Made by a program: the position numbers and the translations under genes. From positions 1 through 64,000 of IMG/VR virus record IMGVR_UViG_3300031227_000038: a stretch of DNA of 64,000 nucleotides; one strand, given 5' to 3'. The DNA is from a virus. Shown here piece after piece: positions 1 to 64,000 of this stretch; within the stretch, counting starts at the first letter, position 1; each line of letters begins with the position of its first letter. The notes beneath the pieces are model-generated. The model saw only the letters and a program-made list of their open reading frames with translations. It was not told the DNA's origin and searched no databases.

Positions 1-1739
1 CTGTAATTACCAGATTCAGAATGGCCAGAGCCATGCGCATATTTATCATTTGCTACAGGTGTCAGAGGAACAATACTTTGTCCCTTAGGAAGAATACAAA
101 CTCCTCCTGCATGAATACCTATGTTAGATAGGTTCTTAATTAATAAGTTAAACATATAGTGAAGATTATAGTTAGGAAATTTATTATTAAAATGTTGTTC
201 TAAATCTTCTACTTCAGCTAATTCCATAAACGAATCAACATCATATTGATCAAGATTATATTTGTCAACTAAATCTGAAAAGTAGTATCCAGAAGAAACA
301 TAGTCTTTCTTTGGATATGTAATATTAAAAACCTTAAACATATAATTAATTAAATTTTTGAGACCTAACTTACTTTTATTAGCAACAACAGTAACGTCAC
401 TATTTGGATAGAGACTTTGAATAATATTTATTAGATCTTCTCTATTTGAGCAATCTACATCAATATCAGGATAATCAATTCTATCTTCACTAATAAATCT
501 TTCAAAAATCAAATTATATTTTATTGGATCTAGATTAGTAATATTTAACAAATAGGAAACCAAACTTGAAGCTGCTGAGCCACGACCTACACCAAATACA
601 ATTCCTTGTTTTCTACCCTCTTCAACAATTTCACTTACAGCTAAAAAATAGTCAATAAAATTTTTCTTGCGTAATAATTTTGTTTCATAAGCTAAACGTT
701 CCATATATTGTGTACGCTCTTCCACTGGAATAATACCATCTATTTTTTCATTCCAGCCACTATAAACAAGATCAGAAAACTTTTGTAATTTTTCTTCTTC
801 TGTACTATTATGATATGTGAACACTTGAGGTTGAAATAATTCTATCTCTTCTAATTCATCAAAAATATTAAGCGTTTCATTTATTGCTTCACTCATATCC
901 TCTTCTGTTATTCCAAATTCTTTAATTTCCAATGCTTCAAAAAACTCATCAGAATTTTTTAACCAAACTGAATAATGAAGATGGCCTACTTTAAGAAATT
1001 GCTCCAATGTTGTTTTCCAACCCATTGCTACAGCAACCGCTTGATATTTTACATCGTCTTTTTTAATTATATGAGCATCAGAAGTTACAATAGCTTTAAG
1101 ATCATATTTCTCTTTAAAAATTTTATTAGCACAATTTACTCTAAGTTGCTTATCCGTATCATCTAAGTATACTTGGTATTCAATATAAGTATTTTCTTTA
1201 CCAAATATTTCCATTATTTTAATGAGATTTTCATGAGCAGCTCTAATATCGTTATTTTTAAGAATAGGCAGATTCCAATATCCACCAACGCAAGCTCCTG
1301 AACATTTTACGTTTCCTCTTTCGTCTCTAATTACTTCTTCTAATATATCTAATGTAACTACAGTAACTCGCTTTCCGCTTCTCATTTTAAGTATTTGCCC
1401 ACGTTGAATAGCTAAATTATTAATTTGAATTATTTGCTCATAACCTCTCTTGTTTACTCCAAATAAAACAAGATGACCTTTTTGATTTTCGCGTGGATTA
1501 TCAAAATTATATTTATCTTCAAGATATATTTCAACCGAAGGCATATATTTTAAATTATATTTTTTTGCTGCATTAAAAGTTTCCATCATTCCGTTTAGTG
1601 TACCGTGTTCAGATAATGATATTGCTTGTACATGTTGCTCTGGATTTTCGCTGATATATTTTGCTCACTGATCTGGAGTACCTACTCCATCATGTATTGA
1701 AAATGTACTATGATTATGTATGTTAAATATTTGTTTCAT
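1..1739 (-). CDS. dnaE: DNA polymerase III alpha subunit (DnaE), 5'-truncated by the window edge; the N-terminal PHP domain is present
   Basis: Minus-strand translation starts MKQIFNIHNHSTFSIHDGVGTPDQ(W)AKY, a PHP HxH..DG motif. A GVGRGSAASSLVSYLLNIT-like pol III motif lies further in. There is no >=60 aa standard-code ORF because in-frame TGA codons, read as Trp, interrupt it. Confidence 0.75.
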
Positions 1740-1742
1740 TAT

Positions 1743-2156
1743 TAATTGTTCCTTTTTAAAAAATATAACTTCTTTATCCTCGAGTATTAACTGAGTATTA
1801 TTCATTAAGTGAGTCACATATCGAACCTCTGCTCTATCTCATTTTCGCATTTCAGTAATTCCAGATACTTGATCTGGTTCGTATCAATTGTGAAATCTCT
1901 TATCCTTTGCTCAATTAATAGTTCTTTTCATGATCTCTGCTTCAATTTTTAATGCTTGATCTTCATTTTCAACAGTAATTGTCTTTATAATTTTAGTTAT
2001 TGGAAATGTTTTTATAATAGGATTGGGCTCATCAGCACCTGCATATCGTAATCGTATAAGAGCATTATCAAATTGAGTAATACCTATTTTATATACACAA
2101 TAAGGTCAACCTGGAAGTTGACCTCTTTCGAGTCTTGCTAAATATACCTTATACAT
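1743..2156 (-). CDS. T5orf172/GIY-YIG-like domain (MYKVYLARLERGQLPGWPYCVYKIGITQFDNALIRLRY...), in frame with and directly upstream of dnaE with no stop codon between them
   Basis: Codon-by-codon translation from the ATG at 2154-2156 runs without a stop (3 TGA read as Trp) into the DnaE ATG at 1737-1739. The YKIGIT..RL motif is typical of the T5orf172/MUG113 family. This is either a fusion or a separate gene whose stop has been lost. Confidence 0.4.
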
Positions 2157-2427
2157 AAAGTCCTTCAGCGAATAAGTATAGATTTGAAGCTATTATATCT
2201 AGCCCTATAGTACTATTAGTACTTTTAACTTTTTTCAAAAAAAGCGCTTGCTTACCTTTGTATGCGAAGTCATTTATGATTTTAATAACCATTGTGCGCT
2301 TTTTTTCTATATCATGTTCATTATAGATCAACTGCATATCATCTTTTGAAATCTTATTTGCATGTGAACTTACATATTTTAACTTTCTTTCTGCTTTAAA
2401 ATCCTGCACCTGTGTTCTTTCTCTCAT
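2149..2427 (-). CDS. hypothetical protein (MRERTQVQDF...)
   Basis: ORF downstream of the conserved promoter/RBS cassette. The true ATG follows GGAGGTTATTAAG. Confidence 0.5.
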   Translation of the reverse strand: MRERTQVQDFKAERKLKYVSSHANKISKDDMQLIYNEHDIEKKRTMVIKIINDFAYKGKQALFLKKVKSTNSTIGLDIIASNLYLFAEGLYV

Positions 2428-2509: not shown

Positions 2510-3460
2510 TTATTTTAATTCTCGCCCTGCTGTCATTATTGCAGTAGCCATTATATCGTCTGAATGAATAGATTCATGATTGTTAACTATAATAGAATAG
2601 TCTAATATTCTGTTATCTAATTCTTTATCTAATTCAAAAGCTATATTTCTAACAATGTCTTCTACAAACATTGGACCACCGCCAGTATCTACAAATTTCT
2701 TATTCTCATCATAATACCCACCCATATAAGACCTTTCAGTTACATATTTCTCGTCTCCTCTTTTAAGAGTTGATCATGTAGGAGATGATACATTTTCTCT
2801 AATAATTTCCATTATATCTTCGATTCACATTGTTCTTCCTTCTATAAATTCAAATGTAACCTCAATTGTAGATTTTTGATTATGTGCTCCAAAGCCAGCA
2901 TTGTTTATTTTATTAAGTAATACCGGAGGAAATTGAGCATGTTGTATAAGTAAACTCTCAGTCATTGTCAGGTTATTTTTTAATAATGACATTTCTTTGC
3001 TACAAGGACATAATGACATCTCAGTAGTTTTAACTGTAATGTAGTTGAATAATTTATCATCTTTTAGTTTACTCTCAAATGTAATATTGACCGGCTCTAT
3101 TGACGATACCTTTTCAATTGGAGATAATGTATCATATAAATATTCAAAATTTGCCTTAATATAAATATCAGTTGCTCCATGAGCCTCTTGAAGCGCATAT
3201 ACAAAATCATTTAAATTTGTAAATCCATCTTTATTTCTCTGCAACACTTCATTAATTGCTCTGCTAATGCGAGACATATTTATCCCTTTAACATCTTCTA
3301 CAAGATTACAGTAGCTTGAAATTGTTGCTATTGTACTGAAGCTTTTTGAATTACCTTTCTGGAATATATGAAAGGGAACTTTGATTCCTCTCACTCCAAC
3401 TTTCTCTATTGGAAGCTTTTTAAATCCAGTTGTGTTTTGTTGTACGTCGGGTAAACTCAT
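2510..3460 (-). CDS. folE2: GTP cyclohydrolase I type 2 (FolE2/MptA-like)
   Basis: N-terminus is MSLPDVQQNT...VGVRGIKVP, a FolE2-like pattern. The ORFs 2825..3460 and 2510..2725 share a frame and are joined through two in-frame TGA codons (2825-2827 and 2774-2776), giving ...EGRTM-W-IEDIMEIIRENVSSPT-W-STLKRGDEKYVTERSYMGGYYDE... Confidence 0.65.
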
Positions 3461-3466
3461 TTAATT

Positions 3467-3994
3467 CTATACTCCTATTATATCTTTTATTTTTTTCATT
3501 CTTTCCTCTACCGTTCCAATAATTGTATGTACATTGGTTACATTATTTCGACCAATATAGTTGTGAAAAACTTCATGAGTCTTTAGTTGAAACTCTTCAT
3601 CTAAACTCCGGAAACCATCATCAACTATTTTGAACTCTGGTGGAAAGTAAAAGACGTAATCAATCTTTTCCATTTCCCTTTCCCATAGATTATGTATATA
3701 GTTAAAAATCCAATATTCAATGTTATCTTCCAATAAGTGAGTGTAAACAAGACAATCCAATATACACCTATCCAGAACTACATTCTTTTTGAATCCGTTA
3801 AAATAATGAGCGTTAGCAATCATCAACTGAGTGTCTCCGTTTCCTTGTTCATTAATTTGAATTCCATATTTTTTATGTAAATTTCTGACAATTTCTTCTA
3901 CAAATTCGTAATTACTAAATTCAGGCAATTTTTTCATTGCCTTCAATATTGTAGATTTTCCAACACTCTGGGCACCGGATAATGCTATTCTCAT
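3467..3994 (-). CDS. P-loop NTPase/kinase (GAQSVGKST Walker A; NadR/AAA_28-like)
   Basis: MRIALSGAQSVGKSTILKAM. It sits inside the deazaguanine cluster and its function is unknown. Confidence 0.45.
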   Translation of the reverse strand: MRIALSGAQSVGKSTILKAMKKLPEFSNYEFVEEIVRNLHKKYGIQINEQGNGDTQLMIANAHYFNGFKKNVVLDRCILDCLVYTHLLEDNIEYWIFNYIHNLWEREMEKIDYVFYFPPEFKIVDDGFRSLDEEFQLKTHEVFHNYIGRNNVTNVHTIIGTVEERMKKIKDIIGV

Positions 3995-4828
3995 TTATGT
4001 TTCCTTTAATAATTTAACAATATTTTTATTGAAGTATTTGTTTAAATAATAATCAATTTTATCGTCAAATTTAATTTCTTCCTTTACCCAGTTACAGCCA
4101 AAAACTGGATTAATTATTTTACTAACTATTGATAATAATATTCTTGAATTAGAACGTGGTATGTATTTTGCCACGTCTATTTTATTATTTTTCAAAAATT
4201 TATTAATATATGTATGTGGTTTTATCTCAACATCATTAATATATAAATTATCTTTTTTTGTAAAGACATTAAGAAATTCTACTTTATTTCTCTTATAAAG
4301 AATTATAATTTTATTGTCATCTTGTATTTTTAAATGTTTAAAATATGTTGGCTTATTATAATAATTTACAAACCTTCTTAAAAGCCCTATTTGAGTCCCC
4401 ATACCTGATTTTTCATTAAAAATCATAATAATATTTTTATCATAAAAAACTTTTTGTAAAAAAGTAAAATATCTAATGTCACCAATATAATATACATTTT
4501 TTGCAGTTTTAAGAATTGGAGAATGTTTATATGCATTTTCTCTATGTTTGATTATAAAAGTTTCATCGATTAATTTACAATTAGGCGTTATCATATCATA
4601 ATAACCACACAATGTTGTTGCAGAAACAATCCCTGGACCTGATGGTGTGACGTAGTAGTAATTATTTTTACCCGCGACTAAATTTATAAAATCTTGTCTT
4701 GCATTATGAAATGCTCCTTTGTAAAGTTTATGTAACGGCACATCATATTCAAAATGATATTTAACCTTCCCACAGGTCATCATAAATACAGTATCATTAT
4801 TAAGTAGTTTTATATCATTAATGTTCAT
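3995..4828 (-). CDS. hypothetical 277-aa protein inside the 7-deazaguanine cluster
   Basis: Intact ORF with no recognisable motif. Its position suggests a pathway accessory protein. Confidence 0.5.
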   Translation of the reverse strand: MNINDIKLLNNDTVFMMTCGKVKYHFEYDVPLHKLYKGAFHNARQDFINLVAGKNNYYYVTPSGPGIVSATTLCGYYDMITPNCKLIDETFIIKHRENAYKHSPILKTAKNVYYIGDIRYFTFLQKVFYDKNIIMIFNEKSGMGTQIGLLRRFVNYYNKPTYFKHLKIQDDNKIIILYKRNKVEFLNVFTKKDNLYINDVEIKPHTYINKFLKNNKIDVAKYIPRSNSRILLSIVSKIINPVFGCNWVKEEIKFDDKIDYYLNKYFNKNIVKLLKET

Positions 4829-5618: not shown

Positions 5619-5787
5619 AAATTTATTTTCCTTCTTTCTTTTAATTATAATAAAATAATGCCCTTTCTTATACTACAATGATAATATAAAAGAAAAGGCA
5701 AAAATAGTAAGTTATTTATTATAAAAATTTAGCTATTTAGTCAACCAATCACTCATACAAACTCTCATAATAAGTTACAGCTTTAAT

Positions 5788-6456
5788 TCAATCTTGTAAC
5801 TCATATAGAGGATCGATTTCATCGTTATCTAAAAACGCCTCTGTACGTTCGACGCAGGTGCCGCATTTTCCACAAGGACTCTCTTCACCACGATAACAGC
5901 TCCAAGTTAGCTCATATGGAACATCTAATTCAAATCCCAATTCACATATATCACTCTTACTCATATTTATAAATGGCGCCATTAACTTAACTCTATTATA
6001 TGTTCCTTCACACGCAGCGGATTTAAACGCATCAATAAATGATTTACGACAATCTGGATAAACTGCGTGATCACCTGCATGATTTCCTAAGAAAATTGAG
6101 CCAATGTCATTTGCTTCTGCATATGCCGTTAGTACTGATAAAAGTATTCCATTTCTAAATGGAACTACAGTAGATTTCATATTATCTTTAGCATAATGAC
6201 CTTCGGGTATCTCATCTGCTCCTGAAGTTAAGCTACTGTTAGAGATCTTATTTAAAAAATCTAATTTAATAATTTCAAACGGTACCCCGAGCTCTTCACA
6301 TTGTAGTTTTGCAAACCCTAGTTCCTTCTTATGATTTTGTCCATAGTCAAATGCTATAGCTTTCATATCATAGCCGAGATCAATGATAGCGTGATACAAT
6401 AATGTCGTACTATCCATTCCACCAGATAATGCTATTAGTCCTTTTTTCTTTTCCAT
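5788..6456 (-). CDS. queC: 7-cyano-7-deazaguanine synthase QueC
   Basis: LIALSGGMDSTT PP-loop, and a C-terminal CGKCGTC zinc motif. Confidence 0.9.
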   Translation of the reverse strand: MEKKKGLIALSGGMDSTTLLYHAIIDLGYDMKAIAFDYGQNHKKELGFAKLQCEELGVPFEIIKLDFLNKISNSSLTSGADEIPEGHYAKDNMKSTVVPFRNGILLSVLTAYAEANDIGSIFLGNHAGDHAVYPDCRKSFIDAFKSAACEGTYNRVKLMAPFINMSKSDICELGFELDVPYELTWSCYRGEESPCGKCGTCVERTEAFLDNDEIDPLYELQD

Positions 6457-6966
6457 TTATTTTTCCTTTTTATCTTTTATAATAACTTCACTATCAATTA
6501 TTTCATCTGAGCTTCCAAATCCGTTTTCTCCACGAATTGTTTCCACTTCATTAAATTCCTCTTCCGTAATTTCAGTGAATGTAAACCCAGGTACTCTATG
6601 TACTTTACATTGTACAATAGCTTTTCCTTTGAGAATAGAAATATCTTCTTTCCCCAAATTATACATTTTTACAGATAAGGGTCCTTTATATCCAGCATCA
6701 ATAATTCCCGGATGAACTCTCAAATCATATTTGATACCGTGGCCACTTCTGGTTGCAAATTCAATATATCAACCTTCAGGAATTAATACTCTTAATCCGT
6801 TTGGTATCATAGCACTTTCGCCTGCGGGAATTACGGTATTTCTAATCGCTATTAAATCAAAGCAAGCACTAGTGCCTTCATAAGCTACACACGGCATAAC
6901 AGCTCTTTTATCTTCTCTTCAAAATTTAAGTTCTAACTCTCTTCAAATTACTACATTATCTATCAT
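6457..6966 (-). CDS. dut: dUTPase
   Basis: Motifs TRSGHGIKY and HPGIIDAGYKG are present. The ORF extends upstream of the listed 88-aa piece through three in-frame TGA codons (IWRE, KFWRED, EGWYIE) to the ATG at 6964-6966. Confidence 0.8.
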
Positions 6967-8154: not shown

Positions 8155-8396
8155 CCTAATCTTCTAATGGATTAATACTTCTATTTATATGTCCACAATT
8201 GGCACATTTATATACCTGAATTGGGAATATTTTATCTTTTGCTAACTTACTTTGTAGCTTACTTACCTTCACTAAAATAAATGCTGGATATCATACATCA
8301 TGTTCACACTCTTCACATCCTACAACTTCACCTTGTTTTGCTAATTCTTGAAAATTAGCTGTCGGGTTCTTAAATAAATCGTTTTGTTCCATTCAA
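8155..8396 (-). CDS. small zinc-ribbon protein (CxxC..CxxC)
   Basis: Manual translation: MEQNDLFKNPTANFQELAKQGEVVGCEECEHDV(W)YPAF...CANCGH. It contains one TGA and ends with TAG. Confidence 0.45.
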
Positions 8397-14090: not shown

Positions 14091-15137
14091 TTTTTCATAT
14101 AATTTTTCATTTATCTTGACCACCTATCTATACTAATAAAGATAGCTATTAAACTATATATCACTGTAGTACAAACTGTATTACCAAGATTCACATAAAT
14201 CATATAAAAGAAAAAAGAAACAATAGAAGCTATTATTGCAAATGTAATTAAAGTAACTAATGATGAAAGCCAAATACTCATATGTTTTAGATTACTATAA
14301 AAATCTTTAATTTTACCATATAACTTCTTAGTATCTTTTACTACACCATTAAATGTATTAATCATCCAGTTCTCCTCGATTAGTTTTTATTATAATAAGT
14401 GCCATAATATATGAGATACCTATACCGGCTAAAGCAATCATACCGCCAGCTCCTGAAATATTAAAAATTAATCTAATAAATAAAGCAAATATTATTGCTC
14501 CAATAATTGCAGTTATAGACTAAATTAATGCTGCAAATTCTGAATTCTTGTTTTTGAGATTTTTATAAAAATCTACTATACTATTAAATATTTTTTTCAT
14601 CTTTTTCCTCCTATTAATAACTCTCGAATTCATGTATTATTGCTAAAATTATAATATATATAAATGCAACAGTAAGTACAATTAATACACCTGGTGAACC
14701 AAAAAGATTGCTTACTATTTTAAAAAACAGTCCAACTATCCCAAGTATTATTGGTAAGGTCACAACAATGATTCCGGTACACCAAGCTGCTTGTACATAC
14801 TTTGACTTTTCAATAATTTTTTCAAATAAATTATCAATTCTTTTTCTTAGCTTCATTTATAACTTCTCCTATGTTTTGAAAATAATCTAAACGGAAACAT
14901 TACTTTCAGTGTTACTAAAAATCCAATTACACTAAAGACCATTAATGACACTCCAATAATATATTCCACAATTACCACCTATCTACTTTCTCTACTACGA
15001 TATCTTTCTTTGACTTAAGCTTATTAACAGCATATACTACTAACCAAAATGGTATAGCTACAATCAATGCAAGAACTACTGCTACGAATGAAATTGTTAT
15101 TGCGCAGTAATCAATAAAGTCTGGCTTCTTGTCTTCC

Positions 15138-19132: not shown

Positions 19133-20335
19133 TTACCCCTTTATTACTGCTAGCGGCATCAACTTAGTAACTACCTTGACAAGATCTTCCTGATTATACA
19201 TAACACTATTAATATCTTTATAAGCACCAGGTGCTTCATCTAAATCTCTTTCATGTCTGATTCCATGAATGATTTCTTGATCATCTAATATTTTAATTTG
19301 CTCATTAAGGCTCAATTCATTTTGAGCTTTGGTTCTTGACATCAATCTGCCGGCTCCATGAGAGCAAGACATAAAGCTATCTGGATTTCCGAGTCCATTA
19401 ACTATATACGATGGAGTACCTGGAGAGCCTGGTATAATTCCTATAGTTCCTGTTCTCGCAAGAGTGGCTCCCTTTCTATGAACTAAAACATTTTCGCCAA
19501 AGTGATTCTCCATTTGAGCATAGTTATGAGCTATATTAATCATGCTAGATAAATCAATAGTTTTCCAACTCATAATAATATCAAACGATTCTTTAATTCT
19601 TTCCATCATTAATGCTCTATTTGCAAAAGCATACTCAACTGCAAAGTTCATTTCACGAAGATAATTTTGAGCATATTCAGTACCAAACGGTAAGAATGCT
19701 AATTGATATTCTGTAGGAATTTGCGTATGCCAGATTTTGTTATTCTTAATAGCAATATTATTGTAATAATCAGCGATTCTTTTACCTAAGTTACGTGAAC
19801 CAGAATGAACCATTACCCAAATATTCTCTTCTTTATCTTTCTGAATTTCAATGAAGTGATTTCCACCACCCATTGTTCCTAATTGTGTCATAGATGCTTC
19901 ATAGCGACGAAAGCTAATTTCCCCGAGATCGTATCCAGTACGACCATTCATTAATTTTACCATTGCATCTATCTGAGGACTATTATGACTATTTTTTCCA
20001 AGTGGTATTCTTTTACGAATCTCAGCCATAATACGTAATATTTCATTACGTGGTATCTCATGTGTTTTCCATGGTGTTTTCACAGCACACATTCCACAAC
20101 CAATATCAACACCGACTGCATTTGGAATTACCACATTTCTAGTCGCTATAACTCCGCCGATCGGCATTCCATATCCTTGGTGACAGTCCGGCATTAATGC
20201 TACGTGTTTAAATATGAATGGTAGAGATGCTAAGTTTCGTGCCTGTTGTAATGCTCCTTCTTCTATTTCATTAAATGGTAGCCAATGCTTGATTGGTTTT
20301 ACTCCACTATCTTTTTCAAATATTACTCCGTTCAT
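19133..20335 (-). CDS. rtcB: RtcB RNA 3'-phosphate/2',3'-cyclic phosphate ligase
   Basis: ALQQARNLASLP, MPDCHQGYGMPIGGV and SHGAGR are hallmark RtcB motifs. Confidence 0.9.
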   Translation of the reverse strand: MNGVIFEKDSGVKPIKHWLPFNEIEEGALQQARNLASLPFIFKHVALMPDCHQGYGMPIGGVIATRNVVIPNAVGVDIGCGMCAVKTPWKTHEIPRNEILRIMAEIRKRIPLGKNSHNSPQIDAMVKLMNGRTGYDLGEISFRRYEASMTQLGTMGGGNHFIEIQKDKEENIWVMVHSGSRNLGKRIADYYNNIAIKNNKIWHTQIPTEYQLAFLPFGTEYAQNYLREMNFAVEYAFANRALMMERIKESFDIIMSWKTIDLSSMINIAHNYAQMENHFGENVLVHRKGATLARTGTIGIIPGSPGTPSYIVNGLGNPDSFMSCSHGAGRLMSRTKAQNELSLNEQIKILDDQEIIHGIRHERDLDEAPGAYKDINSVMYNQEDLVKVVTKLMPLAVIKG

Positions 20336-21550: not shown

Positions 21551-22204
21551 CTATCTTACTAAAAGATTTACTATATTAAGACTATCAAATATTATTGGAA
21601 TTTGTTTTTTAAACTCTTCTAACATTGGAATCGCTATTTCTCTCATTTGCGGATGCGCTGCTAGTGAAGTTCTAAGTTTAAAAAAATGTAACCACTCTCT
21701 TAAATTCATCGTCATAACTATTTCTGTCTTCAATGAATTCGGGAGTACACTTCTCGCTTCTTGTGGACTTGCACCTAATTCGACTAATCGGATATATGCT
21801 TTTTCAATATGTCTCATCATATCTGCTCAAATCATATATTTGCTAGCATCGTCTACTGTTGATTCTTTTCAAAATATAGGTTCAATGAACGTTAATTCAT
21901 TACCAAATTTATTTTTACTATAATTACAATATCTAGTGCTTTCCTGTGTGTAGCTTGCTAATCTATGTCTAACTATTTCGTGTGTTACTCCTCTATCACA
22001 AATTACTCTTACGGTAACAGAATAATGTTCTAATACTGATAAGTGACCTCTTTCAATTATCATCTTAACAAACTTAGCTGCAGAGTCTTCAGTTATTTTA
22101 TCTTCACTTTTATATGCAGTTCGACCTGCCTTCTCAATATGTTTCAGTAGAGCTCAACCAACTATCTCCGATTCAATTTCAAAACTTGGTTTAATTATTT
22201 TCAT
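21551..22204 (-). CDS. thyX: flavin-dependent thymidylate synthase ThyX
   Basis: HEIVRHRLASYTQESTRY (RHR..S) motif. ORFs 21869..22063 and 21551..21820 are joined in frame through TGA codons at 21869-21871 and 21827-21829. Confidence 0.8.
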
Positions 22205-22709
22205 TTATTTCTTTTTCCCTTATTTAATTGCAAGCTGATCTATAATAAACCAACCGAGATATATGCTGATCAGTTTAATTTCTTCACGAATTAATTCTTC
22301 ACATTGATATTCAGCTGATTCAATATATAAATCACTAACGTGGTGTCTCTCTTGACCAATGATACCGAATTGAACAGTAAAATCTTCAAGGCTGTATTCT
22401 CCATTATTGTAGTCTCTCATAAAACTACTAGTAAATTTTTCCATCTTAGTCTCTCCTTCCCTTAGAATAATATTTCTGCATACTCTACTCTTCTACTATT
22501 CATCTCTTTTTTCCTTATGCAGTCTTAATGCTGCTTCCTTTTCTCTATAGTTTGCATAATGCTCATTGAGATTTTCTATAGCTTTGTCTATATTATTATT
22601 AAATATATCAAGTCCTTCGTCAGTTACCTTAACTAGCCAACTATATGCGCCTTGAAATAATGCTGCTGCACTTGCATAATCTTTCATTTTCTCTTCTAGT
22701 GTTCTTTCT

Positions 22710-22973
22710 TTAAACATCTTCTCGCTCCTCTACAATTTCAAATGAATCAAAGTCGGTACTAATACAAGCTCCACACTCTTCTTCTAATTTACAATTTATT
22801 TGATTAGGACACCAATCACAACTCCATGCAGGTTCAGTTGATATACCACACTTAGGACAGTGTTGGTGTTCAACTGTAGGATCTCCATCTTCATCTGGCA
22901 TCCAGCCGAATGTCTCATCTGATTCAAATATATGTCCACAATTTGGACATTTTACCATTATTAATATTTTCAT
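22710..22973 (-). CDS. multi-CxxC zinc-ribbon protein
   Basis: CPNCG...CPKCG...CDWC. Confidence 0.45.
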   Translation of the reverse strand: MKILIMVKCPNCGHIFESDETFGWMPDEDGDPTVEHQHCPKCGISTEPAWSCDWCPNQINCKLEEECGACISTDFDSFEIVEEREDV

Positions 22974-47604: not shown

Positions 47605-47682
47605 TGGTACCCGCCGCGAGATTTGAACTCGCACTGTACGGCTTCTAAGGCCGCTCTCTGCTTCCAATTGGAGTACGCGGGC
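47605..47682 (-). tRNA. tRNA-Leu(TAG), atypical (3-bp D-stem with long D-loop, 5-nt variable arm)
   Basis: Acceptor GCCCGCG/GGCGGGT, A73. Anticodon arm GCGGC-CTTAGAA-GCCGT. Variable ACAGT. Confidence 0.6.
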
Positions 47683-47897
47683 ACGTTTAATTATTTTCTA
47701 AAATTTCCGTTTTTAACAACTCAATTTCTTCAAGCGATTCTATTTCATAAATGCTAATTTCAAAATCTTTCGCATTCTTTCCAATCTAATATGCTCCAGT
47801 CCAAAATTCATATTTATCATTTCTTAATGAATATTTTTCATTATCTCTATTTTTACATATTGTTATGTCTAACATTTTTCCTTTTTTTGATAAATTT

Positions 47898-48125: not shown

Positions 48126-48235
48126 TTATTTAATTAAAATTTCATTTTCCTTCCAGCTTTTCAATCCATATCTAATCAATATCATAAGTCTTCTTTCATA
48201 ATTTTCTTACTCTGCTTATACTCTTCGCTATAGAC

Positions 48236-49006
48236 TCAACAAGTTCCATATTGAGAGTTTAGTTTTCCAGCACTCTTACCTTTAGAGGACTTTGACATTT
48301 TTTGCTTAGTTTCTTCAGAATGATGTTTTCCTGTAAACATTCCAACAAGCTCGCCAGATAGTCGCCTCGGATCATTAACAGAAACGTTAAAAATATTACC
48401 ATATTTATCTTTTGCACTCATTCTACCTTTCATTATACTTACTCATTCTCCAGATAAATATCTAGGACTATCAACAAAAGTATTAAAAGTGTTTCCATCT
48501 TTATCCTTGACTGTCAGAGTATTTTTTGCTACACTTACTCATTCTCCAGATAAATATCTAGGATTAGTTAAATCTGTTTGAATTGTGTTACCGTTTTCAT
48601 CTCTAACGCTTACTTTACCTTTATTTACCCCAACTAATTCGCCAGACAAGAATCTTAAATCATTAACGGAGACTCTAAAAGTGTTTCCGTCTTTATCTTT
48701 GACAGCTGTAGTACCGGTTGAATGAGCTCATCCACCTTCTCCGCCTAGTTTAATATTATAAGTATCTTTTCTTTTAACAAACTCTTTGTTAACTATTTTA
48801 GTTTCCATTAAATAAGCATCTTCTTCGATGTCAAAGTTATATAAAATCTTTTTCTTAAACTTATCAACACCATATTTATTAACCAACCTATTTAAATATG
48901 TTCCTGAACCCATGTAGCCATCTTCAATATTATCTGTTGAATGCTTACCAATATAAATCTTATTATTAACAATATTCGTAATTTTATAAATAAGATGATT
49001 TTTCAT
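48236..49006 (-). mobile_element. GIY-YIG homing endonuclease with NUMOD-like repeats, contains in-frame TGA
   Basis: MKNHLIYKITNIVNNKIYIGK...GYMGSG, followed by four repeated ~35-codon modules (..VNDPRRLSGE..). Confidence 0.65.
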
Positions 49007-49165: not shown

Positions 49166-50006
49166 TTATTTATCGTATTTATCTTTTAACGCTAAATAAA
49201 CTAATTCCCAAACATGTTTTTGTTTTCTCTTGAATCCCTTAACACATCCTTCTTTCATTAGCTTATCATTTGCGCCTTTTAATTTATATCCATAATTACC
49301 AGTCGTTAAAGTTCCTGATACATCATTTCAGATTTTTGCTTCGGCAATTTTACGAGGAGTACCTGTACCAAATGGTACTAATTCTACTGTGACTCTAATC
49401 ATTCCCTAGCTCCTTCTCCGGCCGTTACTGCTTGTTCTTTTGTAATTTTAATTAACTGATGTGAAAGAAGTTCTGCCCTCTTATGTCACCCCTCAGCGGT
49501 ATACCAGCAAGAATCTCATCGTCTGTATCATATCTTAACAAGTTCTTTTGTAAATCCTGTTATTCAACCAACTGTAAAAGTTTTATTGCCTGTAAAATCG
49601 TGAGCAACTGGTTTAATTAAAACAATACAATCGCCAATACTTAATTCTTCTCCAAAATAATCTTTATGCATTTTCTTCTCCAGTGTAAATTAAAGAAAGA
49701 GGATTTGCTCGTTCTTGCGCCAAACCATTTTGACAAGCTTTCCACATTTCCATTAGTCCATCAAGCCCAATAATAGTCTTATTTGATTTAATTTAGATTC
49801 AGAGCGGTCTCTCCATATACCCAGCTGATGTGCTTTATCTGGATATGGTGGCTTATCTGTTTCCCTTTGAATATCTCTCATTATTAGACCATAACCTTTT
49901 ACTTGTTCAATTATAGCTTCTTTGTATTCTTTACTCATAATTTCCTCCGTTTTATATTATAATTAATTATAATATAAAGCAAATTACAAAAATAGTAACT
50001 ATAAAA

Positions 50007-50085: not shown

Positions 50086-50162
50086 TGGTACCTATGGTGA
50101 GACTTGAACTCACACTTTACAAGGTTTGAACTTGCTCTCTCTGCCGATTGGAGTACACAGGC
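50086..50162 (-). tRNA. tRNA-Leu(CAA), atypical short variable arm
   Basis: D-arm CTC-CAATCGGCAGA-GAG. Anticodon arm GCAAG-TTCAAAC-CTTGT. Variable AAAGT. Confidence 0.6.
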
Positions 50163-50606
50163 ATATTTTTTAGTTTATTTATTTCTATTAGTTTGAATTC
50201 TAACTTTACCATCTTTACCTATAGTCACGCTCTCTATTGCTGCAATATTATAGCCACTTTTAAATTTTCTTTCTTTTAAGGAATCGTTATACTTTATAAT
50301 TAGGCTTTTAACACTTTCTACTAATTCTTTTGACAGTCCAATATCACCAAGCTCAATTGGTCGTCTTCCAGAATCTAAATCCATTTTTCTAAGAATCTGT
50401 CAAATCTTCTTACCATGACTTACAGCATAGCTAAGTACTCCTTTTCCAATTTGTCTACTTCTCTTTTCGTAACGTTTTTGATTTTTTAATCACAATCTGC
50501 GACTTGCTAATATTCTATGATACTTTTTCTTATCTTTAAATCACGATCACAAAGATTTCTTTTTATTCATTTTTTAATTTCCTTTTTTTAATTTCCTTAT
50601 TTTAAT

Positions 50607-50683
50607 TGGTGTCCGCAGCGAGATTCGAACTCGCACTGTACAGGGTTTAAGCCTGATTCCTCTGCCGATTGGGATACACGGAC
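50607..50683 (-). tRNA. tRNA-Leu(TAA), atypical short variable arm
   Basis: D-arm TCC-CAATCGGCAGA-GGA. Anticodon loop CTTAAAC. Variable ACAGT. Confidence 0.6.
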
Positions 50684-50740
50684 ACATGATTTAATTTAGT
50701 AAAAAATAAAAACAATGACGAAGAGTAATACATCACGACC

Positions 50741-51420
50741 GGCCTTTGACAACCGGTTATGGGAGTCGAACCCAATTTAAAAAGGAACTGTTTATGTCAT
50801 TGTTCTCATTCAATTTATGAAGGCGGGAAGTAAGTTTTTTACCAATTAAAAGTTTAAAGGAACTTCCAATGCCTTATGTTTCTTAAAAATTTAGGATGAT
50901 TAGTAGGTGCCGCCACTCTACCAGTTGAGCTACTTCCCCATAAAAACTTTGGCAGGGAAGGTAGGACTCGAACCTACAAACAAGCGGATTGATTGTTTTC
51001 AAAGGAACTAATTTATATCCTTTTTTAACTTTTTTTTTAAAAATAACAATTATAAGATGATCAGTAATTATAGGCGGCTACTCTACCAGTTGAGTTACGT
51101 TGGTTCACTCTAGGCTTAACAACGATGGGATTCGAACCCACAACTAGCTGCTTGGTTTTTCAAAGGAACTGATTAATATCTTATTTTCTAATTTATATGG
51201 ACGGCTGGTAAGGTTGCTTAGAAGGCAACTGCTGATTATGCAGTTTAAGGAACCGGCTTATGTCCAATCTTTAGACGGTTAGTAATTTTTTTTTTATCAT
51301 TGTTTTTCAAAGGAACTAACTATGTCTAATGTATACTTAATCATATGAGGCGGGCAGTAGTTTTTGGTTAAAGCGGCGAACCGCTTCCCTATGTTTTTCA
51401 AAGGAACTGCCTAAGCCTCG
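50741..51420 (-). repeat. Repeat-rich non-coding block with 7 copies of a TTTTCAAAGGAACT(nnn)TATGTC motif, a second repeat family (AAAAACT(T)ACTnCCCGCCT(T)CATA, 2 copies) and tRNA half-like segments
   Basis: Motif copies at about 50780, 50853, 50996, 51156, 51243, 51303 and 51395. T-arm/acceptor-like segments at 50741-50775, 50949-50985 and 51124-51155. D-arm/acceptor-5' segments at 50918-50940 and 51070-51105. Confidence 0.7.
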
Positions 51421-51430
51421 TTTTTTATTT

Positions 51431-54218: not shown

Positions 54219-54476
54219 AAATTAACCTCCGTTTATCTTTTTTAAATTAAAAAATTCGGCAGATGCGATGGTGCTTGGATCATGAGATCGAATCACTTAT
54301 GCATACAAATTCGCCCATCGTTGGATTTCGTCCGCCTAAGTGCCTAATAAATCTAAATGTACATATTAAACTTAAATAAACATCATTTTCTGCAATTGAT
54401 AGGCATAATTCAAAAAATCAATTAAACAGTTGATTACCAATCAATTATAATATAAGATAAAGATCAAAAATAGTAA

Positions 54477-55832: not shown

Positions 55833-56767
55833 ACTTTTATTATTCTATCTAAGGTATAAATCTCTCATCATCAATTCTATCATTATAACCAACAATATAC
55901 CCATTGGTATAATCTCTATCATAAAACTCTTTCTTTATTCGATCAGCAGCTGTTTCTGCTTGACATATTCCTTCTTCAACTCCAATATCATATCCATGAC
56001 TCATTCTATCTTCATAAAGCTTTTGAAAATATTTAGTTAACTCTGCTTTCTTACCCGGTAAAATCTGAAGAAAGTCAACGAAATCTTGTAACTCTCCATA
56101 AAGATTAAACTCTGGCTTTTTTGATTCTGTTACTTTAAGTTCCATAGTCTCCTAATTTTAAATAAAAAACGAAATAAATTAACCAATCCATGCGTCTCAA
56201 CATGGTCAAGATTTTTATAAAAATGGTTTGTTCCCCATCTCCTATTCTTTACGTGCACCAAAAATAGGTTCCCCTACACTAGCTCCGCGGTCATGCGAAC
56301 TTCCAATTTAGTAGCTTAATCAATTTAGGAAGGCGAAGCTTCTTTCAACTCGGCTAATCAGTCTTATGTAAAGGTCAATTTATTTCTTTGCTTTCTTTTT
56401 AATATAAATTTATTCTTACAACATCTACAGTCAAATTATAATACTTTAGATATTGCATTTTATCTCCATTCTATTAATTCTGACTCTTCCAAAGCACTTT
56501 CAAATTCGTCAATAATATCCATTGCTTCTCTCACTTTTTTAGCATCCTTCTCATCAACTAATTCCTCTGGAACAATATATCCACCACGGAATAAATCATA
56601 TCAGAAATCATCTACGCTAACTACTTCTGCGTTTTCTTTAACTTTCATTTATACACAACCTTTTTCTATATACTTATTTTAAAAGTCAGTACTCTACCTA
56701 ATTGAACTACCTGCCCTCCGCCGAGGACAAGAAGGGAATCAAACCGCATATCTCTGACTATTTTTAT

Positions 56768-60338: not shown

Positions 60339-61187
60339 ATGATAACACTTATTGATAGCATGATATATCTAACAACACAAAAATATAATACAAGTAAATT
60401 TAAATCTCTACTAGAAAATATATCGAAACAAAAAACTGATAAACGTCTACTAACAAGAGAAGATATTAGAAACGTAGAGTCTTCATCTCCTATTCATTAC
60501 TATATTAAGAGATATGAACCTATTGATGATCCTGATGAAGAAAAAGAACTAGTACTTAGATATCAAAAGAAAAAAGATCCTCGTGCATTCGATAGATTAA
60601 TTAGAGCACAATCAAAATATATGCTGAAACTAATAATGAATAACAAAAGTAGACTTGAAAAAATTGATAAGAATATTTCTACAGAAGAAGTATTCAATGT
60701 TATGATTATTAATTTTGCTAAAGCAATTAATAAATTTAATGCAAATAAAAATGTAAGATTCTATACATATCTAAGACATTGACTTAATGAAGTAATTACT
60801 AATCCTAGCAGATTCTTAACAAAATCAGCTCATGAAATGGATAAAAAAAGTAGCTCTATGGATATCAAACTAGGAACTGGATCTAATGGAAAAAGTATTA
60901 GTGATTTAATAGCAGATCCAAATGCTACTAATATGTATTCAGATAGAGAAAAGGAAAAATTTATGAGTTCTTTCATGAAAAGAGGAATGAGAGCTCTTAA
61001 TAGTAAAGAGCAGTTTGTTATAAAGGCTTTTTATGGGCTACTTGATTCTCGAGAAGAAGATAAAGTTAAAAGCTCTAAAGGCAAAGTAACCAATGCTGCA
61101 GTGGCGAAATATCTTGGTATTACTGACCCTGGAGTATTAGCTATTCATCGAAGAGCACTTAGTAAATTAAAATCAGCATTAAGTTAA
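60339..61187 (+). CDS. sigma-70 family sigma factor
   Basis: ORFs 60339..60782 and 60837..61187 share a frame and are joined by TGA at 60780-60782. Region 2-like FDRLIRAQSKYMLKLI and a region 4 HTH VAKYLGITDPGVLAIHRRALSKLK are present. Confidence 0.65.
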
Positions 61188-61194
61188 AAATCTG

Positions 61195-61927
61195 ATGAAA
61201 TTAGCAAAAATAATTACAGAGTCTGTTTTTAAAGTAGATCTAAAATTTATTGAAGAATATCTTAATGGCGTTTATAAAATATTCAACAGCTTTGATAACA
61301 GCAAAGAAAAAGACAATTCACCAAAAATAGTAAATCTACTAAATAAAAAAGCAATAACATTAGCTAAAAAAACCGAGTTATTTGATGAGATGGTTTGAGT
61401 ACTTACAAAAGAAAAATCATATGAAACAAGAGATAAGAAAGTCGGCATCGTTAACACCACTGGTAGTAATGAGGGTGATGTAACAATATATGTTAATGAT
61501 AAGATAATACTTCCATTTACAAAAGGTGATAAATTATGGAAATTGTTCGTTTCAATAATTAAAGGATACTTATCGCATGAGCTTGTTCATATCTATCAAT
61601 TTGATAAGATATATGCAAAGAATAAAGATAATCCAAAAAAATATTGAAAAATCGTTAATAAAATAGCTGAAGTCGATCCTGAGCAAGTTGTTAAATATCT
61701 TTCTGCTCCAATGGAGATTATGGCATTTGCTAGTCAAGCATATAGTGAATTTAAAGAAAATGGATTTAGTGATGATGATATAAAACGCTATATTAAAGAA
61801 TGAAGGAAATATCTTAATCCTAAACACTCTTATGTATTTTTTTCATATGTAGGATGAATGAGAGACCACAAAGCATTTAAAAAATTCTTAAAAAACATCT
61901 ATGAATATACAGTAGATAATAATATAT
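61195..61927 (+). CDS. HExxH zinc metallopeptidase-like protein
   Basis: SHELVHIYQ. Extends past the listed 67-aa ORF through four TGA codons. Confidence 0.45.
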
Positions 61928-62750
61928 AAAAAAATAAGCCTTCAATTAGTAAGAATTAACAATACATTGGAGGCTTTTTATTTTTCAAATATTAATAAAA
62001 AAATTAATCAAGTAATATCTTTCTTTTAGCATTACCTTTATTTTTTATATCACCACCTTTGTTTTCTTGATTTATCGCTTGATATTTTCTGCCGCAATTT
62101 GAACAAAACTTATCCTTCAACACTCTTAATGTACCACATTCTGGACAATACTTTTCTAACATTTCTTCCTCATTAATAGTTTCGAGAAAATAGAGTACAA
62201 CATTACTGGAACACGTGGGTTTTTCTCAACCTTGAGTGTTGGCTACTATTGATATATTACTACTGTCATCTCTATTCATTTTCTTTCTTTTTATCCTACT
62301 TGTTTCTTAACTTCACTAAGTTGCATATCACTTACTATAAACGATCACATCTCACATCTATCTGGGTAATATTTTAATGATTTATAATAATAACTATATG
62401 GTTTGCCTAAAAAAGTTTGAACTTTTTTAAGATTTCTTTTTCCAAGAATAGTTACTAGGTGTTCGTTTTTCTGTATCTTTTGTACTACTCATTTCTTTTC
62501 TATTGTTGGTAACATATTTTTCCTTTTTACTCAATATCTAATATTGGCGAATTTGTTGCAGGATCTTTATAACACGATCTGATTTCAAAATAATCATCAT
62601 CATGTTTGGAAGGTCTTAAATCGCCATGACTTATCTTATAGCATGCTCCAGGACTTAACTCAATATATATAAGATCTTCATTATTATATTGCTCTAATAT
62701 TAATTTTAATTCTTTAACCTTCATTCTAATATCTCTTCTTCTGTTCCACT

Positions 62751-63953: not shown

Positions 63954-64000
63954 ATCATAAGTTGTTCTAATATGGTAATCTGTGTTTTCAACTGCACGCT

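Follow-up and report, generated by a model that had tools for sequence, protein, structure and literature searches.

The 64-kb stretch of DNA analyzed here (positions 1 to 64,000 of the IMG/VR record IMGVR_UViG_3300031227_000038, hereafter the window) is part of an AT-rich, tRNA-rich, huge uncultivated phage from Ace Lake, Antarctica, in which TGA almost certainly encodes tryptophan (Trp, W) and TAA and TAG are the stop codons. The use of TGA is partial and patchy: it occurs in 27 of 121 genes (22%) and accounts for 60 of the 263 Trp codons (23%). Translation with code 4, put forward in the original prediction from the sequence and its open reading frames (ORFs), was supported in three independent ways, namely by the alignment columns of FolE2, by TGA/TGG exchanges with the relative represented by contigs L012 and L013, and by the alignment columns of a protein encoded on a further locus, L103. 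Flanks of +8.7 kb and -7.8 kb (~16 kb; ~80 kb in all) were added to the window for these analyses, together with two extra loci, L103 and L109, that probably belong to the same phage; L103 shares an Ace Lake sample with the window phage, carries the same promoter cassette (described below) and has a G+C content (GC) of 29%.

In-frame TGA codons lie within conserved genes

The genes in which in-frame TGA had been reported, together with QueC, are as follows (aa, amino acids).

3-2159, minus strand: DnaE, running off the left end, with an in-frame 140-codon N-terminal extension (frame translation; Pfam PHP and DNA_pol3_alpha)
2510-3460, minus strand: FolE2 (GTP cyclohydrolase IB), 316 aa, TGA at 2825-2827 (aa 212) and 2774-2776 (aa 229)
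5737-6456, minus strand: QueC (Pfam QueC), TGA at 5788-5790 and 5749-5751 in the C-terminal tail
6457-6966, minus strand: dUTPase, TGA at 6943-6945, 6919-6921 and 6769-6771
21551-22204, minus strand: ThyX, TGA at 22154-22156, 21869-21871 and 21827-21829, stop codon TAG
45140-45799, minus strand: GIY-YIG homing endonuclease, 6 in-frame TGA and 1 TGG
48134-49006, minus strand: GIY-YIG/NUMOD3 homing endonuclease, 7 in-frame TGA and 0 TGG
60339-61187, plus strand: phage sigma factor, TGA at 60780-60782 (PHROG 351, E 3e-19, aa 35-281)

All positions named in the original prediction were checked and each proved to hold an in-frame TGA; reading these codons as sense restored full-length proteins with their canonical domains, the Pfam and PHROG models running across the TGAs. 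Both FolE2 codons lie inside the GCHY-1 domain (Pfam GCHY-1 at aa 3-305 of 316, profile positions 1-260 of 260, E 9e-58), and a peptide across a TGA, read with Trp, is GRTMWIEDIMEIIR. The codon expected near 1670 in the PHP domain of DnaE was located at 1665-1667, and the PHP match covers positions 147-329 of the DnaE-frame translation, across TGA; further TGAs in this frame are at 1839-1841, 1884-1886, 1911-1913 and 2106-2108. Three TGAs had been claimed for dUTPase between 6724 and 6966, all of which were found; the Pfam dUTPase match (aa 23-153) crosses the one at aa 66, as do alignments to PDB structures. ThyX contains the two TGAs anticipated and a third one at 22154-22156, with the Pfam Thy1 match at aa 21-203 and alignments to PDB ThyX structures on both sides of the TGAs. 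The two GIY-YIG endonucleases, likewise said to be interrupted, are paralogs with TGA at matching motif positions (GGxGGw, YGTCw), and the ENA-derived call for the gene at 48134-49006 in the same phage is the full 290 aa. The sigma-factor TGA falls inside the PHROG match and, by eye, aligns to the second W of the 'YATWWIRQ' motif in region 2; matches of this protein to RpoS and SigA structures in the PDB were weak.

For a test of coding signal, a codon model was trained on long ORFs called with translation table 11, and the same frame was scored downstream of each stop. The mean coding score was +0.15 downstream of TGA, where the own frame was best in 8 of 11 cases (73%), compared with -0.03 downstream of TAA (own frame best in 24%, n=68) and -0.04 downstream of TAG (39%, n=18). 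Coding density, obtained with a simple self-trained gene caller, rose from 71.9% with table 11 to 80.7% with TGA as sense, a gain of the kind that re-calling with table 4 was predicted to give, and was 72.4% with TAG as sense. Taken together, the same-frame signal and the gain in density show that in-frame TGA does not arise by chance. The curated gene set assigns 82.1% of the window to coding sequence and 3.6% to tRNA or transfer-messenger RNA (tmRNA), which leaves 14.4% as neither.

TGA corresponds to tryptophan

Among the 120 best homologs of FolE2, the column aligned with the TGA at aa 212 holds W in 95 sequences, Y in 16, N in 3, T in 2 and four singletons, and is the sole Trp-rich column of the alignment; the column at aa 229 holds W in 33, Y in 31, F in 30, R in 17 and K in 6. 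Neither contains glycine (Gly). L012 and L013 represent a syntenic relative (gene order AAA_28 - FolE2 - DnaE - PDDEXK; 25.6% GC; protein identity 55-70%). At orthologous positions, the codons of L012 and the window were TGA/TGG in 12 cases, TGG/TGA in 4, TGA/TGA in 3 and TGG/TGG in 5, and no Gly codon stood opposite TGA. For a 301-aa protein of L103, four of six TGAs fell on aromatic or hydrophobic columns, with F dominant and W a minority residue in three of them. Polymorphism among strains contributed nothing on TGA/TGG synonymy, none of 27 single-nucleotide polymorphisms among 8 loci being informative.

Other meanings of TGA were weighed against these data. Hosts of the Gracilibacteria/Absconditabacteria type occur in anoxic waters, and phages are known that share their code 25, in which TGA encodes Gly. 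Since Gly is found at none of the TGA-aligned columns of FolE2 and the L103 protein, and the orthologous swaps are between TGA and TGG and never involve GGN, the probability of this reading is negligible. The same holds for gene decay with TGA as a nonsense mutation, for selenocysteine and for faulty assembly: the sequences are 99.5-100% identical across independent assemblies from 2008-2014, the ~60 TGAs all keep frame and domains and lie on Trp or aromatic columns, and paralogs share TGA positions. The Trp columns, the TGA/TGG swaps and the identity of the assemblies, along with the QueC tail (see below) and the paralogs, therefore exclude code 25, selenocysteine, pseudogenes and assembly error.

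TAA and TAG serve as stops

When TGA is read as sense, each of the 120 complete genes called in the window ends in TAA (96, 80%) or TAG (24, 20%), and no conserved domain is broken by TAG in the window and its flanks, so that both codons can by default be taken as stops, as the original prediction had stated. Table 15 (UAG = glutamine) does not describe the phage, as TAG ends 24 genes, breaks no domain and yields no gain in density when read as sense. Two particular TAG stops had been singled out. One, expected at about 8157 ahead of queD, lies at 8156-8158, just upstream of that gene, and the other is present as described:

22493-22498, minus strand: tandem TAG-TAG ending the 73-aa gene 22496-22717

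We also asked whether TGA is an occasional true stop, and rejected this: 13 of 55 TGA and 47 of 198 TGG codons lie within the last 20 codons of their genes (odds ratio 0.99), so there is no enrichment near 3' ends. The seemingly terminal TGA of QueC (5788-5790) is opposite TGG in the relative L013, and the tail beyond it is conserved. Read-through of TAG at 36146, 39932 and 39734 was likewise dismissed, as the downstream ORF in each case has its own ATG two codons past the TAG and these are therefore separate genes.

At DnaE, however, neither TAA nor TAG separates the gene from the upstream 140-codon extension. This extension (1740-2156, minus strand) contains four TGAs and has no family match. 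Both it and the adjacent 92-aa gene (2149-2427) are absent from the relative L012, where DnaE directly follows FolE2, and the extension may be an inserted mobile gene that is either fused to DnaE or read through into it. Given the tRNA(CUA) and the TAG-interrupted ORF described below, TAG as a stop is best regarded as a default that is perhaps not absolute.

TGA use is gene-specific and clustered

Genes tend to keep to one of the two codons: only 16 mix TGA and TGG where 35 would be expected, and no permutation out of 10,000 came out as low (p<1e-4). TGA-containing genes are also clustered along the genome (28 runs versus 41 expected; runs test p = 3e-4). Counts per gene revealed the enrichment by gene class that the original prediction had raised, TGA being densest in homing endonucleases, followed by genes of DNA metabolism. 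The endonucleases have TGA/TGG counts of 6/1 and 7/0 in the window and 12/1 and 3/0 in the flank; next in rank are the N-extein of ribonucleotide reductase (RNR; 11/5), a DUF7205-like protein (5/1), the N-terminus of DnaE, ThyX, dUTPase and FolE2, and TGA is also found in the primase. TGG alone is used in RtcB, the CCA-adding enzyme, RNA ligase, NAD synthase, NAPRTase, QueE, DNA ligase and most small ORFs. With respect to early and late functions in the window, the genes for tRNA repair and NAD are TGA-free and DnaE, RNR and primase carry TGA. Three further genes with several TGAs complete the list.

49384-49671, minus strand: 95-aa protein, 5 TGA and 1 TGG, whose counterpart on the near-identical contig L001 carries PF23835 (DUF7205)
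50175-50570, minus strand: 131-aa basic protein, 4 TGA and 0 TGG
61195-61929, plus strand: 244-aa protein with a weak match to the BSP peptidase family, 4 in-frame TGA

In the flank past window position 64000 (L008 1-8700), intein-like segments and free-standing genes for endonucleases, all of them rich in TGA (TGA/TGG 12/1, 3/0 and 4/1), interrupt the RNR gene.

A cassette of ~75 nucleotides (nt) comprising a promoter and a 5' untranslated region is present in nine copies (GTTACTATTTTTT - 8 nt - TTATATTAT ... AATAACTTGGAGGTTATTAARATG), upstream of ATGs at 2427, 12031, 19043, 21394, 30273, 36714, 41885, 57385 and 60177 (minus strand). These cassettes probably mark the starts of transcription units. 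Their promoter-proximal genes are TGA-free in 9 of 9 cases, which is not significant (p about 0.1).

tRNA genes and non-coding elements

ARAGORN and Rfam identified 25 tRNAs and a tmRNA between 32 and 59.5 kb (array 32161-59508). The array has about one tRNA per codon box and covers 19 amino acids, all but Tyr; anticodons with C34 occur only for UUG, UGG, AUG and UAG, and a tRNA-Ile(UAU) is present. The 3' CCA is encoded in 23 of the 25 tRNA genes, the exceptions being His and Cys. Bacterial tRNA-Leu normally has a long variable arm, which is missing from the three tRNA-Leu genes here (47605-47682, 50086-50162 and 50607-50683; 77-78 nt each). Two tRNAs bear directly on the stop codons.

34908-34982, minus strand: tRNA-Trp(CCA), the sole Trp tRNA in the window (ARAGORN; Rfam tRNA 65 bits)
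40376-40450, minus strand: tRNA(CUA), which reads UAG (ARAGORN; Rfam tRNA 61.4 bits)

The anticodon stem of the tRNA-Trp(CCA) is 6 bp long, and this tRNA has A9 and pairs U11 with A24. In the tRNA(CUA), the anticodon stem is 4 bp long, C27 and A43 being unpaired, and the loop has 7 nt; position 73 is G, and the gene encodes the CCA end.

A non-coding stretch of ~750 nt (50684-51430, minus strand) was considered as a possible site of a hidden tRNA(UCA), and this was discarded when the tRNA-like matches there proved to be permuted YrlA-like elements. The two elements (50911-50986 and 51077-51148) are each made up of a T-arm, a closed acceptor stem and a D-arm and match Rfam YrlA (Y RNA-like) with 31.6-31.9 bits, which is below the gathering score of 69; the stretch also contains four exact copies and one near copy of AGTTCCTTTGAAAA. 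Bacterial Y RNA-like genes sit in rsr/rtcB operons, and the phage encodes RtcB at 19133-20335. Elsewhere, a sub-threshold match to the Rfam small RNA 'freshwater-1' (56215-56278, minus strand; 38 bits, gathering score 72, E 5e-5) sits in a 314-nt non-coding gap.

Relatives recode either TGA or TAG

The relative L012 uses TGA for ~65% of its Trp codons. A 540-kb scaffold of another relative, L005, encodes a short protein similar to release factor (RF) 1 at 3800-4570, with the PPT tripeptide and GGQ, as well as an odd tRNA-like gene (14879-14952) whose 6-nt anticodon loop, GUCUAA, holds CUA. In the sister lineage L007 (24.8% GC; 56% identity in a conserved 598-aa protein), the homolog of the window GIY-YIG endonuclease contains 14 in-frame TAGs, mostly opposite E, K, Q or D, and none of the seven other ORFs examined on the 9.6-kb contig contains any, which points to regulation rather than a host-wide code. 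Judged from these sequences, the huge-phage group holds both TGA- and TAG-recoding members, and both types are also found within clades of gut phages (Borges et al., bioRxiv 10.1101/2021.08.26.457843). An attempt to identify the host through metagenome-assembled genome bins containing the 598-aa protein family was uninformative, as members of this family are also found on ordinary bacterial contigs of high GC.

How UGA may be decoded

The original prediction had offered two explanations, a Mollicutes-type host or a recoding of stop codons as in some large gut phages. The partial, patchy use of TGA fits the second better and a Mollicutes-type host code less well, and we consider phage-type recoding, taken as a whole mechanism, to be the probable one, with moderate confidence. 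Under this mechanism, UGA-free genes would be made at once by an unmodified host, which we infer to have the standard code, whereas the UGA-containing genes (endonucleases, dNTP synthesis, DnaE, primase and sigma factor) would wait for a UGA-reading tRNA-Trp, presumably a tRNA-Trp(UCA) from another part of the phage genome. UGA could thereby time the synthesis of endonucleases, replication proteins and the sigma factor, and, given the TGA in the latter, late transcription itself could be gated by the code switch. Recoded genes make up 26-71% of genes in phages of standard-code hosts, compared with ~90% where host and phage share the code, and a homing (intron) endonuclease is among the most TGA-biased genes of the Agate phages (Borges et al., bioRxiv 10.1101/2021.08.26.457843). 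The low recoded fraction in the window, the bias towards endonucleases, the RF1 of the relative L005 and the TAG-recoding sister L007 would thus be best accommodated by phage-type recoding.

Several observations weigh against it. The tRNA(UCA) that the original prediction had named as a companion of recoding was found neither in the window (ARAGORN with default and relaxed settings, Rfam at E<=1) nor in the 16-kb flanks, and the phage's own Trp tRNA has the anticodon CCA. The window also lacks an RF gene (the original prediction had named RF2 or an anti-RF) and a gene for tryptophanyl-tRNA synthetase; an RF1-like gene was found only in the relative L005 and itself carries an in-frame TGA. DnaE, RNR and primase contain TGA and are not late genes, so that a model in which early genes keep to the standard code applies only in part, and the Pfam and PHROG scans revealed no structural or lysis genes in the 64-kb window. 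Lastly, TGA is used in 8 of 8 compared genes of L012, which looks like a fully established code. On the other side, a matching suppressor tRNA was detected in only 35% of code-4 phages, and Lak phages recode replication genes too (Borges et al., bioRxiv 10.1101/2021.08.26.457843).

The decoder missing from a near-complete tRNA set, the TGAs in replication genes and the heavy recoding of L012 leave some weight to an unlikely alternative, in which the host (Mycoplasmatales-type, or from one of the lineages recently reported among Patescibacteriota and Fastidiosibacteraceae) natively reads UGA as Trp, the phage follows suit and a host tRNA-Trp(UCA) does the decoding. The phage tRNA-Trp(CCA) would then meet the need of a TGG-rich phage in a host that mostly uses UGA; genes of nucleotide metabolism carry TGA along with those of replication, and L012 has it in every compared gene. 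Free-living lineages with UGA = Trp exist, and a strong Shine-Dalgarno (SD) motif, present in ~80% of the window's genes, argues against a host from the Bacteroidota. The UGA = Trp bacteria known so far, however, have very small genomes, which makes it improbable that they host a phage of 176 kb or more. TGA is found in just 22% of genes and 23% of Trp codons despite a GC of 31%, and in a strongly gene-specific manner, whereas ~90% of genes are recoded in phages that share the code of a recoded host (Borges et al.). The sister L007 recodes TAG rather than TGA in the same endonuclease family, and L005 has its own RF1-like gene. Still less likely is that the phage tRNA-Trp(CCA) reads UGA by near-cognate C:A pairing, helped by the A24 'Hirsh' state of the D-stem, with no UCA tRNA needed. 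This tRNA does have U11-A24 and A9, G24A and 4-bp-stem variants of tRNA-Trp(CCA) read through UGA in E. coli, and Ca. Zinderia relies solely on such a near-cognate tRNA (PMC13092985). Yet its anticodon stem of 6 bp is not shortened, A24 is common in bacterial tRNA-Trp, and genes with 7-12 TGAs would demand efficient decoding beyond leaky reading.

A possible role for the UAG-reading tRNA

Two ORFs of the window are interrupted by an in-frame TAG.

14358-14600, minus strand: small membrane protein ORF of 80 codons, TAG at 14520-14522 (codon 27), strong SD
47687-47875, minus strand: weaker second candidate, 62 codons, in-frame TAG at 47786-47788

The first stays open for 53 codons past the TAG, for which we estimate a chance of ~0.02, and its TAA overlaps the ATG of the next gene. 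Similarity to four small-membrane-protein paralogs encoded nearby extends over the parts before and after the TAG, and the sequence is identical in the 8 assemblies, from different samples, that cover the full ORF. A back-up stop within 3 codons follows 29% of TAG and 12% of TAA stops (p = 0.06).

These ORFs and the canonical tRNA(CUA) (61 bits) raise the possibility of dual read-through, in which TGA generally means Trp, tRNA(CUA) decodes TAG under certain conditions in a small number of genes, and termination is unconditional at TAA alone. The sister lineage L007 with TAG as sense, the CUA-like tRNA of L005 and the more frequent back-up stops after TAG point the same way, and the first ORF, with its paralogs, SD, open frame and 8 assemblies, is the stronger of the two candidates. 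Against this, 24 of 120 genes terminate with TAG, no conserved domain is broken by TAG in ~80 kb, TAG as sense brings no gain in density, the excess of back-up stops is not significant and the first ORF may be a fixed nonsense allele. On balance we find dual read-through doubtful, and have similar reserve about tRNA(CUA) serving to read through TAG conditionally in a small number of genes. This tRNA could instead be a remnant of, or a bridge to, the TAG-recoding sister lineage, or have a role outside phage gene expression. As 4-bp-stem tRNAs with C34 have been proposed to pair also with A at the third codon position (PMC13092985), one may speculate that tRNA(CUA) would read UAA too. If dual suppression were true, late genes beyond the window might also be TAG-read through the 4-bp-stem tRNA(CUA), and the phage would be a case within a huge-phage group that recodes either UGA or UAG.

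Comparison with known recoded systems

Recoding of UGA to Trp by phages is already known, although uncommon; the habitat is new. The closest parallels are the TGA-recoded (code 4) Agate and Jade phages of the gut (Borges et al.), which are likewise large, low-GC phages with TGA as Trp in a fraction of genes and TAA and TAG kept as stops, a homing endonuclease being among the most TGA-biased genes in Agate. A further parallel is RF1, carried by the TGA-recoded Jade phages and found here as the RF1-like gene of the relative L005. The window phage differs from them in coming from an Antarctic saline lake, in having a tRNA(CUA) and no matching tRNA(UCA) in 80 kb, and in carrying TGA also in replication genes, nucleotide-metabolism genes and the sigma factor. 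With the Lak megaphages and other TAG-recoded (code 15) phages it shares a huge, AT-rich and tRNA-rich genome, a tRNA(CUA) and the possible recoding of replication genes, and its sister L007 has in-frame TAG. However, TAG ends 20% of its genes and breaks no domain, the sense codon is TGA, and searches of INPHARED (megablast/tblastn) and IMG/VR revealed no close sequence relationship to Lak or code-15 phages. In the table 4 Mycoplasmatales/Entomoplasmatales and their phages, TGA is also Trp and translation ends at TAA and TAG. These genomes have TGA as their dominant Trp codon and contain a tRNA-Trp(UCA), whereas in the window phage TGG makes up 77% of Trp codons, TGA use is gene-specific and the only Trp tRNA seen is CCA. 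The near-cognate tRNA-Trp(CCA) variants (Hirsh G24A; 4-bp stem; PMC13092985) resemble the phage in A24 and in that no UCA tRNA was found, but the stem of tRNA-Trp is 6 bp here and the 4-bp stem belongs to tRNA(CUA).

With this phage, UGA-to-Trp recoding reaches beyond animal guts to a meromictic lake in the polar region, and the lineage concerned has relatives of up to 540 kb. Two features stand out, the lack of a UCA tRNA in view and the CUA tRNA mismatched to the recoded codon, and these make the complete genome worth examining. The phage offers a compact system in which to ask how UGA is decoded with tRNA-Trp(CCA) as the sole Trp tRNA in view, and why a UGA-recoded phage keeps a UAG-reading tRNA. 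The heavy recoding of homing endonucleases, by TGA here and by TAG in L007, lends support to a role of recoded stops in restraining selfish or late functions.

Source, gene content and annotation

The window has 30.8% G+C and a strong strand bias, nearly all genes being on the minus strand. Exact or near-exact copies of the phage are present on dozens of metagenome contigs, the largest of 176 kb. The JGI samples with the phage are from the 13.5-m oxic-anoxic interface and the 18-23-m anoxic zone of Ace Lake, from the 0.1-um fraction and the years 2008, 2013 and 2014 (PMC7416419 supplement). The huge phage of 528 kb published from the same lake (PMC7416419) was considered and is a different one, with a GC of 0.56. 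As regards close relatives in curated collections, nothing above 30% identity came up in INPHARED (megablast with 25 kb, tblastn with DnaE), and an IMG/VR pattern search with DnaE returned no relative.

According to Pfam and PHROG scans, the window is a region of replication, nucleotide and RNA-repair genes, as is typical of huge phages. Its genes include DnaE, the 7-deazaguanine set FolE2, QueC, QueE and QueD, dUTPase and ThyX; on the RNA side the CCA-adding enzyme, RtcB and RNA ligase; and NAD synthase, NAPRTase, a Macro domain protein, ATP-dependent DNA ligase, the sigma factor and the two GIY-YIG endonucleases. Gene calls by JGI, made with table 11, break FolE2 (211 + 71 aa), dUTPase, DnaE, RNR and the endonucleases into pieces, and the ENA-derived calls for the same phage treat TGA as sense. 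Annotation of this abundant Ace Lake phage, and any inventory of its genes, auxiliary ones included, must therefore use TGA = Trp. Other assemblies of the phage contain a 587-nt insertion near window position ~56950 (L001 5593-6178; also L008 and L009), and a second structural difference of ~80 nt lies near 54330; the window is thus one structural variant of the population.

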